Shown here piece after piece: positions 15,780 to 32,087 of a stretch of 64,000 nt of DNA. The notes beneath the pieces are model-generated. The model worked only from the letters and a program-made list of their open reading frames with translations, was not told the DNA's origin and made no database searches. Both the position numbers and the translations under genes were made by a program. Source of the DNA: Octopus vulgaris (taxonomy: Eukaryota); contig OX597825.1 of the NCBI GenBank assembly GCA_951406725.2, forward strand, positions 10,540,001-10,604,000. Direction: 5' to 3'. How positions within the stretch are numbered: position 1 is the first letter of the stretch; every line of letters starts with the position of its first letter.

Positions 15780-16073
15780 CGTACTCTCTTACACACACGC
15801 GCACTTTCATTTTGGGATCACTACTACTTTGTTATCTCCCCTACTTCTTCGCTCTCCTATGTGACCCTTCTGTCCGGCATTCGCCATGATAGATCGGTAG
15901 CCACAACACACATTTTTTTTTCTCTCCTTGTTTCTTTCTGTGTTCCTTTCTGTGGAAGAGCGTAGGCTCGAAACGTTAAAGACTTTTTCAATTCCCGAGC
16001 GTTATACTAATACATCTGTGTTTTCTACGCCACATGTCTTCGTCTTTTGTTTTTTTTCGTGAATTCTCCCTAT
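15780..16073 (+). mobile_element. Solo PLE 3'-end (pseudo-LTR) fragment between (TA)n tracts
   Basis: Shares the GAAGAGCGTAGGCTCGAAACG..GAGC..TACTAATAC..TCTTCGTCTTTTGT terminus with 27170-27367, 31860-32087 and ~10840-10952. Confidence 0.7.
15946..15981 (+). ncRNA. Minimal hammerhead-like motif, A6U variant
   Basis: CTTT-CTGTGGA-A-GAGC-GTAG-GCTC-GAAA-CG-TT-AAAG. Confidence 0.6.
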
Positions 16074-16839
16074 ACATATATATATATATATATATATATA
16101 TATATATATATATATATATATATATATATATATATATATATATATATATATATATATATATATATATATATATATATATATATATATATATATATATATA
16201 TATATATATATACATATATATACATATATATATATTTGTATGTATGTATGTATACATGTATGTATGTATGTGCGCGTATATGGTTGAATGTGTATGGGGG
16301 TGGACATAGAAATTATATTAGAATCATTAGGCGGCGAAAGGAAACAAATCGCAGCATCAAAACTTATGTGAAATGCTTTTCAAGACGTTCTTAGACAAGC
16401 GTTTCAGAAAGAAGACAATGATGATCCAAAGAGAATAAAGAAGCCAAACCAATTAAATCTATGATAATAATTGATCATTAAAGCCTACTTCTCATTTTGC
16501 TGAATTTTAATTGCTTTTTATGTAGATGTTTACGTAAACTCTAATTTGTATTTCTCTCAACTGTAAGAGTAGCATATGTACGTAACTATATAGTCATATA
16601 ATTTCAAGTGTGTGTGTAAATATACTTATAAAGACATGTGTGCATATATATATATAATATAGGTATACATACAATGTATATATATATAATATACAGATGT
16701 ATAAATCTATATACAATATAGAGAGAGACACTCACATATATGTATATATAAAGTTAAGTATATATATATATTTATACCCATATGTATATATATATATATA
16801 AATGGTTTTATATATATATATATATATATATATATATAT

Positions 16840-17335
16840 GGAATACCAAAAGTGAGACAAGAAAACAACGCAAAAGATCCAGACAGTTAGATGATACAAA
16901 AAAGGGACAACAACACATCCAGACAGACGATACAAAAAAAAACAAGAACGGGTCATTCGAAGTTTCCTTTCTTCAGTCGAGTTCCAGATTATCGTTGCAA
17001 TTTCGGCTGGTTATACTCGAGATTTCTCCAAACTGGCAAGCCCCAAGGAAAAACTAAGCTAAGATCGCTATGTTCCTTGGAAGAAAGCAGCGAATGTATA
17101 CGAAAACAAGGACGAAAAAAACACGGAGAAATGGTACACAAATACAAATGCAAATAAAAGACAATAACAACAGGTGTCTTTCGACTAAGGACGAATTAAA
17201 TTAAGCTGGCGTGTGTGAAAGTGAAGTCTTACGGCAGGGACATAAGTGATGACAGGCACAGTCGAACCAAGAAAGAAATGTCAGGCCTGGCCGAACACCG
17301 ATCACGTGGAGAGAGAAGCGAGAGAGGTAGAGGCA
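16840..17335 (-). mobile_element. (TA)n-flanked insertion, probably another PLE 3' fragment
   Basis: Sharp (TA)n boundaries and a T-rich minus-strand tail like the other PLE ends. No complete hammerhead was found. Confidence 0.4.
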
Positions 17336-18984
17336 TATATATACATATATATATATATATATATATATATATATATATATATATATATATATGTATGTAT
17401 ATAAAATTTCCATGTTTCCATGGAAAATATGATAGACAGACAGACAGACGGACAGACAGACAGACAGACAGACAGACAGACAGACAGACAGACAGACAGA
17501 TAGATAGATAGATAGATAGATAGATAGATAGATAGATAGATAGATAGATAGATAGATAGATAGATAGATAGATAGATACTTTGGAATCAGGAATGGAAGT
17601 CAATAATAGAGGAAGCAAAAAGCGACAAGAAGTGAAGAAAGCTTGAATGACAGAAATATTCTCATGCATTTGAAAGAACGGTCAATTAGATGTAATTATT
17701 CAGGCTGGAAAATATTGCCTGAAAGCAGCAAAACAAAAATGCTCTGGTATTCTACAGAACGTAATTCTAATAATGAACCATTGTGTGTGTGTGCGCGTGC
17801 GTGCGTGCGTGCGTGCGTGCGTGCGTGCGTGCGTGTTGAGATTTTCACTGTGATGATATATAAGAGAAAGATCTGTTTTTGCTGGGTTTTTAAATATTGA
17901 CACAAGGCCAGCAACTTAAGGGGGTGCGGTAAGTCACTTATATTGACCCCCAATACTTGAATGATACTTTATTTAATCGATCCAGAAAGGATGACGAGCA
18001 CAGTCGACCTCGGCGGAATTTGAACTCAGAACGTTAGGAGCCACAAGAAATACTGCTAAACATTTTGTCCGGCGCGCTATCGATTTTGCCAATTCGCCAC
18101 CTTTTCTTTTACAAATAATATTGGTTTCAAATTTTGGCAGAAGCCCAGTAATTTCGAGGTAAGTCGATTACAACGATCCCTGTACTCAGCTGGTACTTAT
18201 TTTATCGATCTCGAAAAGATGAAAAGCAAAGTCGTTCTGTGCGGAATTTGAGCTCGGAATATGAAGACGGACGAAAAGCCTGTAATCCTTTTGTCCGGCA
18301 TGCTACAATTCTACTGGATCGCCACCTTTTCTTTTACTGATAATATTACCATTTACTCTAAGGCGGCGAGCTCACAGAATTATTACTGTTGTTGCTGATG
18401 TGGTTGTTGTTTAGTCGTAGGCCAAAACTAATCCAGAAAACTTGCAGCCAAAAGTATTCCAACCTTCACCAGTCTTTTCTGTAATTCAGAAACAGTGTAT
18501 CTTCAACTACATTATCTGATGTGTTAAAAAGATTATAATGATTGACATATGGAAAATTTGGCCGTTATTTCTAGTTTGTCGATTGACTGCACAGAGGCTT
18601 CCTCGTTGGTAGTTGTCCATTTAAAATAGCTTGATTGATATCCTATTCAGTATCATAATTATTCGATTGTTATCTCTGGTTATATCGGTTTTTAGCATTT
18701 TGTTTAAGAGCGCCAAGAGATTGATATCTCGACGATCAACAATGGCTTGCAACAACACACAGCCTCGAGTCATATGGTTTAGTAATCATTATTTGAGTGA
18801 CAAATTCAGTAACCGAAGAGAGGGGCAAGTGAGGAATAGAATAGATCTGCAATAACTACATATCGTCAGTGGAGCGAATCGGACTAATGGAAAGTACAAT
18901 AATCTAAAAGAAACATTCAACCTGACAATGTTGCTAACCCTACAAGATGGCAGTCAAATGTATTGACAAGGGAGATAATTAATA

Positions 18985-19556
18985 ATTTATTATAGAAAAT
19001 CCGTTCTGCCTGTCTGTGTGTGTGTCTTCTAGGATCTCGGGCATCCTCCATCCGATTGCGCTCAAATTTGATATGTAGATACCAACGGTATCAGGGCGTC
19101 TTGGAAAAATTACAAAAATCGATTCCAGAGGGCATGCATCGTTTTTGTTCAGCTTTTCTTCCGTCAACCTGTACATAGCTGCACCTTCCATATTTTGTTT
19201 TTGTACTGCTTAAAGGCACGTTTCTTTCCTGCCAAGCTTACTGTTTAAACCATGTTTGTGTTCTCCCAGTCAACAACCTTATCATTACTGGTACTTTAAA
19301 CTCTTCGGTTGCATATTTGTGTGAATAAAATCGTTTTTCTTTGGAATAGAAAAAAAGTCTATCTTTATTTCTTCTTTTGCTGATGTCTCAAATTTAGGTT
19401 AAATCAGTGTTTCTAAAAGGGGAGGCCTATGGGACGGTCGGACAAGTTGTTTTGAGAAAATTTGGTTTAAATATTTGTCAACTCAGCACCGTCCATTGGA
19501 CGGGGGGGGGGCGTTTTGTTCGTGTGACTATATTTCACTCTTAAGGGATAAACTAG
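18985..19556 (+). mobile_element. Possible non-autonomous Helitron/Helentron-like remnant
   Basis: TATTATAGAAAA..CTGTCTGTGTG..CCGATTGCGCTCAAATTTG 5' block, with CTAG near 19553. The resemblance is from memory only. Confidence 0.4.
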
Positions 19557-30828: not shown

Positions 30829-31230
30829 AAGGCGGCGAGCTGGCAGAAACGTTAGCACGCCGGGCGAAATGCTTAGCGGTATTTCGTCTGCAGCTACGTT
30901 CTGAGTTCAAATCCCGCCGAGGACAACTTTGCCTTTCATCCTTTCGGGGTCGATTAAATAAGTACCAGTTACGCACTGGGGTCGATGTAATCGACTTAAT
31001 CTGTTTGTCTGTCCTTGTTTGTCCTCTCAGTGTTTAGCCCCTTGTGGGTAGTAAAGAAATAGGTATTTCGTCTGCCGCTACATTCTGAGTTCAAATTCCA
31101 CCGAGGTCGACTTTGCCTTTCATCCTTTAGGGGTCGATAAATTAAGTACTAGTTGAATACTGGGGTCAATTTAATCAACTTATCGCGTCCCCCGAAATTG
31201 CAGGCCTTGTGCCTTTAGTAGAAAGGATTG
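30829..31230 (+). mobile_element. SINE family A, dimeric copy
   Basis: Full monomer followed by a headless second unit joined at AAAGAAATAG|GTATTTCG. Confidence 0.85.
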
Positions 31231-31446
31231 TTTTTCATTATCGCCTTCATTACGGTGGCGAGCTGGCAAAATCGTTAGCACGCTGGAGTATTTCGCTTGT
31301 CGCTGCGTTCCGAGTTCGAATTACGTCGCGGTCGACTTTTTCTTTTATTATTTTGGGGTCGATAAATTAAGTACCAGTGAAACACTGATGTCGATGTAAT
31401 CGGTTGCAGGTTTGTTTTCTGTAAATTTGAACTATATATATAACTG

Positions 31447-31575
31447 TTAAAGAGGATAACAAACATTAAGGCAAGACAAAAATCTCAAGTCGTATAGAAT
31501 ATTATTATTGGAAAAAATAGTATTGTATACGACTTGAGATGTTTGCCTTACTTTAATATTTTTTGTCCTCTTTAA
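31447..31575. repeat. Imperfect palindrome, ~60-bp arms with a short loop
   Basis: TTAAAGAGGA..ATCTCAAGTCGTATA..TATT pairs with AATAG..TATACGACTTGAGAT..TCCTCTTTAA, about 9 mismatches. Confidence 0.8.
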
Positions 31576-31859
31576 TTATATATCCGCTGCATCGGATATC
31601 TGCAATGGCTCCGTAACTACCTTCTCGGCTATAACCTTGGAGCCCTAGTAATCCGGTACACCACTTACCTAGCGTACATAATCGTTTAGATCACCTTTGA
31701 ACTAAACCCCCATACTTTGTATATATGTGTATGTGTGTGCGTGTGTATGTGCGCGTGTATGTGTGTGTGTGTGTGCATGCACGCCTGTGTGTACATGTAT
31801 GTATAGGCACGTACACACATATATATATATATATATATATATATATATCGCCATGATAT

Positions 31860-32087
31860 ATATATATCGCCAGATCGCCATGTTGATTCGTTAGTTACTG
31901 CACGCATTTTTTTCTCTCCTTCTTTCTGTGTTTTTTTTTCTCTCTGTGTATCTTTCTGTTGAAGAGCGTAGGCTCGAAACGTTAAAGACTTGTTTTATTT
32001 ATATTTCCTGAGCGCCATACTAATACAATTGTTTGTTTCTTTTCCACCTGTCTTCGTCTTTTGTCTATTTTCATAAAGCTTCCCGTT
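31860..32087 (+). mobile_element. Solo PLE 3'-end (pseudo-LTR) fragment between (TA)n tracts
   Basis: Same family terminus as 27170-27367. Confidence 0.7.
31951..31988 (+). ncRNA. Minimal hammerhead-like motif, A6U variant
   Basis: TCTTT-CTGTTGA-A-GAGC-GTAG-GCTC-GAAA-CG-TT-AAAGA. Confidence 0.65.

Follow-up and report, generated by a model that had tools for sequence, protein, structure and literature searches.

Penelope-like elements (PLEs) carry a hammerhead ribozyme that is described as universal in canonical members, yet as a poor cleaver that is dispensable for insertion in vitro (PMC4209133, PMC8557442, PMC11167929; published work is cited here and below for the sections that were covered). 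The published consensus for the minimal form of the ribozyme is CUGANGAH-G...C-GAAA-N-palindrome-U-H (PMC4209133). Its stem III forms only by the pairing of two ACGU palindromes, its cleavage is slow, and U3-A8 is the only core variant described in the text covered. A natural A6C hammerhead also cleaves slowly, and does better with Mn2+ (PMC3088659, PMC7151607). The hammerhead of a Poseidon PLE cleaved only after addition of the PLE protein; insertion in vitro did not depend on the hammerhead, and RNA ends were not seen at its site (PMC11167929). Here, we analysed a stretch of 64,000 nt of Octopus vulgaris DNA (contig OX597825.1, positions 10,540,001 to 10,604,000, forward strand), referred to as the window. 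Three minimal hammerhead motifs in the window belong to a high-copy family in which U is the inherited base at core position 6, and which is carried by what its sequence features identify as an endonuclease-bearing (EN+) PLE.

The original prediction described three dispersed hammerhead-like motifs that lack A6. A search of the window with its pattern returned exactly these three matches, all on the + strand with C3 at 15950, 27238 and 31956, and 100 shuffled versions of the window returned none. The three motifs share one layout, numbered here by comparison with PMC4209133: stem I, CUG-N6-N7-GA, an extra A after A9, GAGC-GUAG-GCUC, GAAA-CG-U-H17 and stem I', the CG lying within an ACGU palindrome. 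Stem I starts at 15946, 27233 and 31951 and pairs as CUUU/AAAG or UCUUU/AAAGA. Positions 6 and 7 read UG, CC and UU in copies 1, 2 and 3, respectively, and H17 is U, A and U. None of the motifs is free-standing: each lies inside a shared repeat of 200-295 bp that is bounded by (TA)n and corresponds to the 5'-truncated end of a retrotransposon, here the pseudo-long terminal repeat (pLTR). The features are as follows.

15777..16070, + strand: copy 1, 5'-truncated 3' end (pLTR) of a Penelope-like element of the U6-G7 subfamily, between (TA)n tracts
15946..15981, + strand: minimal type I hammerhead motif of copy 1 with U6, G7 and U17, C3 at 15950, predicted cut 3' of 15977
27170..27367, + strand: copy 2, 5'-truncated pLTR fragment
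27233..27270, + strand: minimal hammerhead motif of copy 2 with C6, C7 and A17, C3 at 27238, predicted cut 3' of 27265
31871..32086, + strand: copy 3, 5'-truncated pLTR fragment of the youngest subfamily
31951..31988, + strand: minimal hammerhead motif of copy 3 with U6, U7 and U17, C3 at 31956, predicted cut 3' of 31983

Copy 1 is 84-88% identical to loci L242, L072 and L008 elsewhere in the assembly. The loci closest to copy 2 (L251, L256 and L156, at 94-95% identity) have U6 with C7 or U7, so copy 2 most likely acquired its C6 by a U>C change of its own. Copy 3 is 96.4% identical to the pLTR of the full-length element L131 and 98.7% identical to L201, and its motif is the same as that of full-length elements bearing an open reading frame (ORF). 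The solo copies of the window are likely by-products of 5'-truncated reverse transcription, without a function of their own.

Across the 2.8 Gb assembly, the exact pattern matched 19,868 times (reversed control, 0), in agreement with the suggestion that the motif is a high-copy one. Position 6 was U in 18,928 of these matches (95.3%), C or G in 584 (2.9%) and A in 356 (1.8%). Overall, C6 and G6 stand near the background of decay, as a control pattern changed at U4 matched 406 times against their 584. When stem II was left free, U6 motifs numbered 23,716 (control 23) and A6 motifs 7,964 (control 28); most of the A6 motifs listed come from a sister family (for example L140-L163), whose stem II is near-identical and whose loop 2 has 3 nt. 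Because a CUGANGA descriptor misses about 75% of the motifs here (23,716 of 31,680), as had been expected of standard motif searches, counts of ribozymes in animal genomes may be too low. An older subfamily (594 matches; U4 control, 33) differs at this position: the first 100 listed, read by eye, had 79 U, 14 C, 6 A and 1 G. In view of that control, position 6 is more relaxed in the older subfamily, and the sequences point to a C6 sub-lineage that probably exists there.

The A6-less copies could have been canonical A6 hammerheads that decayed after insertion. The near-neutral frequency of C6 and G6 fits such decay, and copy 2 probably is a decayed copy, though one derived from U6. The other observations run the opposite way. 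Among 50 loci anchored on the ORF of the carrier element, 46 contained the motif, and all 58 motifs found in them had U6 (one of the 58 belongs to a neighbouring copy of another subfamily). In a sample anchored on the flank and blind to the motif, position 6 was U in 73 of 75 copies and A in 2, and both pLTRs of intact young elements have U6. As the ORF-anchored motifs are U6 without exception, including those of full-length elements 99.6% identical to one another, U6 is inherited by recently mobile elements. Decay as the source of U6 is thereby refuted, and we give the idea a negligible probability; the absence of A6 from the majority of copies in the genome stands as first proposed.

Compared with the published PLE minimal hammerhead consensus, the motif departs at core A6 only. 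It agrees at C3, U4, G5, G8 and A9, the extra H, the G10.1-C11.1 pair, GAAA, the palindromic 15.2-16.2, U16.1, H17 and stems I and II. The extra A, the ACGU palindrome and the need to dimerise had been put forward as non-canonical; this part of the original prediction does not hold, because all three are already in that consensus (PMC4209133). On a comparison of sequences, only U6 is new relative to the literature searched.

The copies have a common 3' end ~110 nt downstream of the motif, followed by (TA)n, and variable 5' ends, the longest extending 5' into a region coding for a GIY-YIG endonuclease. A search with this region gave 150 scored matches from 18,521 candidates, and 19 loci with long open frames, chosen among the top matches, were fetched (one tandem array contributing two stretches). 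These loci define an element of ~4.5 kb with a single ORF. Pfam placed a reverse transcriptase (RT) domain in the ORF (RVT_1, E 1.1e-7, 32.2 bits, cut-off 29.6) and, C-terminally, a GIY-YIG domain that stayed under its own cut-off (E 0.006, 17.3 bits, cut-off 22.6); a 246-aa piece of the endonuclease had no Pfam match. Homologues were found at 40-57% identity, many with both RT and GIY-YIG domains and none a named reference sequence. The linker between RT and endonuclease reads C-x4-C-x2-C, and a CCHH zinc finger, which places two Cys between GIY and YIG, is visible by eye in the translation. Of the 19 long-ORF loci, 11 carry the motif twice, in pLTRs separated by 4.4-4.6 kb, and L131/L132 has three motifs in a row. 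The likely start codon lies ~740 nt downstream of the motif, and the 3' untranslated region (UTR) is long (~1 kb) and of low complexity. No optional 30-40 bp PLE tail was found at the 3' ends examined, which pass directly into (TA)n or the next tandem unit.

Given the ORF with RT and C-terminal GIY-YIG domains, the motif-bearing pLTRs, the common 3' end, the 5' truncation and the CCHH finger, the carrier is by its sequence an EN+ PLE with features of the Neptune/Nematis type, and is set beside both clades by their described features. The original prediction of a PLE minimal hammerhead is therefore borne out, the motif sitting in the pLTR of an element that encodes RT and GIY-YIG. The 19 ORFs have a mean identity of 99.6% over 2,030 nt (171 pairs), and two pairs are identical across different contigs; as the loci were chosen among the top matches, these values show that very young copies exist, not how old the whole family is.

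Several further observations concern the carrier. In the ORF of L123 and L131, the part upstream of RT is proline-rich with a tandem duplication of ~21 residues, and in some copies the likely start (MPDP...) does not share the frame of the long ORF. A subfamily made up of L174, L183, L206 and L212 has a direct duplication of ~31 nt between the motif and the 3' end, close to the latter. Contig depth in runs X2 and X11, which we guess to be RNA, climbs sharply at L131:3890-4030, where a T-rich 5' UTR directly precedes the likely start codon. Parts of this region are missing from one X2 contig, and X16 and X18 differ, which could reflect an intron or mere low-complexity mapping; these four runs consist of contigs only, and carry no RNA ends, strand or level. 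Run X11, which has a second organism code, includes one contig that matched the U6 motif without a difference.

Since copies decay neutrally after insertion, constraint has to be sought by comparing lineages. The motif-blind sample used an anchor of 18 nt, placed ~60 nt downstream of the motif, that matched 23,454 times. From the first 100 anchor places, 99 were fetched (one duplicate anchor was skipped), and 98 insertions remained after L175 was dropped: 75 with a whole, gap-free motif, 20 truncated within or before the motif and 3 with indels. In the 75 copies, position 7 was U in 33, A in 22, C in 14 and G in 6, and position 17 was A in 59, U in 14, C in 1 and G in 1; the remaining non-CpG motif positions were each at least 93% fixed. 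Changes were then assigned by parsimony on a tree of 74 rows, all within the first 11 Mb of one contig, L232 being left out as the twin of L231. The 29 columns of core and stems had 44 private and no lineage-level changes, and the 63 flank columns 164 private and 50 lineage-level changes (Fisher p=3.8e-5). Elsewhere in the motif there were 8 lineage-level changes at positions 7 and 17, 1 in the 4 columns of loop 2 and none at position 6, and the CpG of the palindrome had 12 private and no lineage changes. It should be noted that the alignment is short, comes from one contig region and has noisy, low-complexity flanks.

The core, the stems and the ACGU palindrome are constrained between lineages, and positions 7 and 17 are free. 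The expectation that core and helices would exceed their flanks in conservation was supported between lineages, whereas the proposed variability of positions 6, 7 and 17 holds for 7 and 17 and not for 6, which is fixed as U in the dominant lineages. The two changeable positions agree with the hammerhead consensus (CUGANGAH...H, PMC4209133). We also considered that the motif is a neutral relic on a successful element, and that it only seems conserved because master lineages are few, the tree is in error or the low-complexity flanks align noisily. Private changes, at 2.6 per column in the flanks versus 1.5 in the core, are a sign of such noise, and the 74 rows leave out the three copies with motif indels. 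Against this, the flank rate of 0.79 changes per column predicts about 23 lineage changes in the 29 columns in which none occurred. Moreover, N7 takes all four bases at the subfamily level, hypermutable CpGs decay in copies and never in lineages, and the A6 sister family, although distant, has kept a near-identical stem II and the same palindrome. A neutral relic is therefore improbable in our view.

The A6 sister family bears on the origin of U6. A tree was built without columns 6 and 7 from 131 of 157 harvested sites, leaving out 8 with deviating stem II, 2 that were too short and 16 redundant young copies. In this tree, 34 A6 rows formed a sister clade with support of 100/100, and in the other clade A6 and C6 rows were scattered among U6 rows. 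Monophyly of U6 was not shown on this tree, for which the sample had been enriched on purpose for A6 and C6 point variants and the bootstrap was unsettled (0.84). In 88 of 102 rows binned to the U6 lineage the outer pair of stem I was C-G; 28 of 32 sister rows had G-C or G-U there, and 23 rows were unbinned. Because the sister clade has A6, as do the rows examined in the published alignment of minimal hammerheads (PMC4209133), these sequences suggest that U6 is most likely derived from an ancestral A6; the change to U likely happened once and was then inherited.

We are moderately confident in the following reading. The motif is a minimal hammerhead of type I that sits in the pLTRs of a (TA)n-associated PLE with recent mobility; it likely still folds as a hammerhead, and its cleavage is predicted to be weak and to depend on dimerisation and on protein. 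Where copies are transcribed in tandem, their two pLTR motifs, at a distance of ~4.5 kb, would pair through their ACGU palindromes to form stem III. A cut 3' of H17 would trim RNA of unit length or set it free, while most inserted templates would stay uncut. U6 would slow cleavage through the loss of the contacts of A6. A pair between U6 and A15.1 is predicted in the monomer and would conceal the palindrome; its predicted probability was 0.43-0.98 in 6 U6 copies and 0.00 in 9 A6 and 3 C6 copies. The variant would then act as a damped, chaperone-dependent ribozyme, helped by the element's own protein.

A number of results weigh against this proposal. No ACGU duplex forms in the minimum-energy dimers predicted for U6 copies, and the monomer folds are no stabler than shuffles (z +0.06 to -1.06). 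Among 40 matches to (TA)n 5' junctions, 29 fit the cut site and 11 begin further in; a control TA microhomology site 13 nt upstream had 17 junctions, with a longer pattern that undercounts, so that no marked excess was seen at the cut site (29 versus 17). Of the 19 loci with long ORFs, none starts at the upstream cut site. Other blocks of the pLTR are also invariant between lineages, and the constraint is therefore not unique to the motif. Selection on U6 itself is not demonstrable from one column, and C6 makes up 14 of the 100 motifs listed in the older subfamily. Finally, because A6C lowered the Mg2+ rate by orders of magnitude in one ribozyme (PMC7151607), a U6 motif free of tertiary contacts may be inert. 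Searches with Rfam were uninformative in this regard: no hammerhead was among the matches listed for the window (150 of 286), and none was returned at E<=10 for 161-nt stretches around U6 copy 3 or around an A6 control.

Some of these points would suit a motif that no longer cleaves, its fold and sequence being kept as a signal for PLE-protein binding, dimerisation or reverse transcription. A6 is a conserved core base, and the junctions lack a cleavage footprint. In addition, catalytic mutants had no effect on insertion of another PLE in vitro (PMC11167929), Naiad PLEs thrive without canonical hammerheads (PMC11167929, PMC8557442), and loop 2 is nearly invariant, with its single lineage change, beyond what catalysis alone demands. 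A purely structural signal does not account as readily for the precise match of the variation to positions 7 and 17, which catalysis leaves free, for lineage-level switches at position 17 that involve A and U only (58 A, 14 U, 1 C and 1 G), or for the retention of C3, G8 and G12, the last in a CpG site, in all lineages. We consider such a signal possible but doubtful. Similarly tentative is the idea that U6 makes the motif an auto-inhibited switch, in which the U6-A15.1 pair hides the palindrome and cutting occurs only when the element protein refolds the RNA, or else a non-catalytic recognition element. A dead-looking core would then be dominant and selected here, forming a large class missed by CUGANGA surveys. 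Damped cleavage by a dimer with protein assistance remains the interpretation that we prefer.

The window contains two further copies related to the family.

~10848..10950, + strand: degraded fourth copy of an older subfamily, motif recognisable in the 3' half only
11070..11255, - strand: copy of the A6 sister family with the degraded core CCGACGA, 83-89% identical to L140, L020 and L150

Within 10848-11255, this degraded end of the U6 lineage (+) and the sister-family end (-) lie tail to tail across one (TA)n tract of ~115 nt. Two copies at L013/L014 (G000:C1:1878305-1878476) are likewise inverted and tail-to-tail, 145 bp apart, and similar close inverted pairs occur among the pattern matches.

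The 3' part of an apparently different Penelope-like family occupies 14312-15750 (+), and copy 1 follows directly behind it across a (TA)n tract; L016 has a stretch 98% identical. The ORF at 14312-15004 (frame end 15007) looks GIY-YIG-like by eye in its C-terminal part, and Pfam gave no match to this ORF. The ORF is followed by a hammerhead-like motif of the canonical A6 type, whose C3 is at 15604, whose stem II is long (15611-15665) and which has an ACACGUGU palindrome. Elsewhere in the window, an (AAT)n-type trinucleotide array of ~2.3 kb covers 42100-44400, and GC content is 6% over 42001-44000.

A natural A6/U6 pair in one genome makes the role of the PLE hammerhead testable. The U6 lineage is more numerous than its A6 sister and recently mobile, and the pair could separate the view that cleavage matters from the view that the fold matters. 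Reportedly, the largest survey of PLE-linked small hammerheads is that of Lunse et al. 2017. No U6 hammerhead was found in the literature searched; that survey and the figures and one supplement of PMC4209133 lie outside its coverage and could already show U6.

Among known elements, the carrier resembles the Neptune and Nematis EN+ PLEs (Craig et al. 2021, PMC8557442) in its ORF with RT followed by C-terminal GIY-YIG, its C-x4-CxxC linker, the two Cys between GIY and YIG, partial-tandem pLTRs, heavy 5' truncation and microsatellite targets. The Neptune clade is described by a CX2-5CxxC linker and a bias towards microsatellite insertion, both of which are found here, and Nematis has the linker finger too. 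Unlike these PLEs, the element showed no optional 30-40 bp tail at the 3' ends examined and has a low-complexity 3' UTR of ~1 kb. The non-LTR retrozymes (bioRxiv 10.64898/2026.07.22.740005, PMC7229834) likewise place type I hammerheads in animal repeats at high copy number, with a relationship to PLE pLTRs. They are short non-coding tandem units, each with a hammerhead. The copies seen here do not fit that description, being dispersed truncations, in the form of 3' fragments, of an autonomous coding element of 4.5 kb. The Anolis Poseidon PLE (Frangione et al. 2024, PMC11167929) likewise has a pLTR hammerhead in an EN+ PLE, and offers a precedent for protein-dependent cleavage and uncut templates. 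It belongs to a different clade, and its hammerhead overlaps the ORF start, unlike that of the octopus element with its distant likely start.

With the A6C hammerhead of phage Bcep176 (PMC3088659, PMC7151607) the motif shares a natural pyrimidine at core position 6. Bcep176 is a single C6 example from a bacterial phage, whereas U6 is fixed in a large lineage of eukaryotic retrotransposons, in a minimal, dimer-type motif known here from sequence. The closest relatives are the minimal hammerheads of metazoan PLEs (Cervera and de la Pena 2014, PMC4209133), which are likewise of type I and located in pLTRs, with a U-rich 5' flank, a stem I of 4-5 bp, an extra nucleotide between 9 and 10.1, G10.1-C11.1, an ACGU palindrome substituting for stem III, solo copies by the thousand left by truncated elements and a presumed dimer. 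The octopus motif differs in having U, sometimes C, at position 6, where the published consensus and the rows examined have A, in a stem II of only 4 bp and in its ~24,000 copies.

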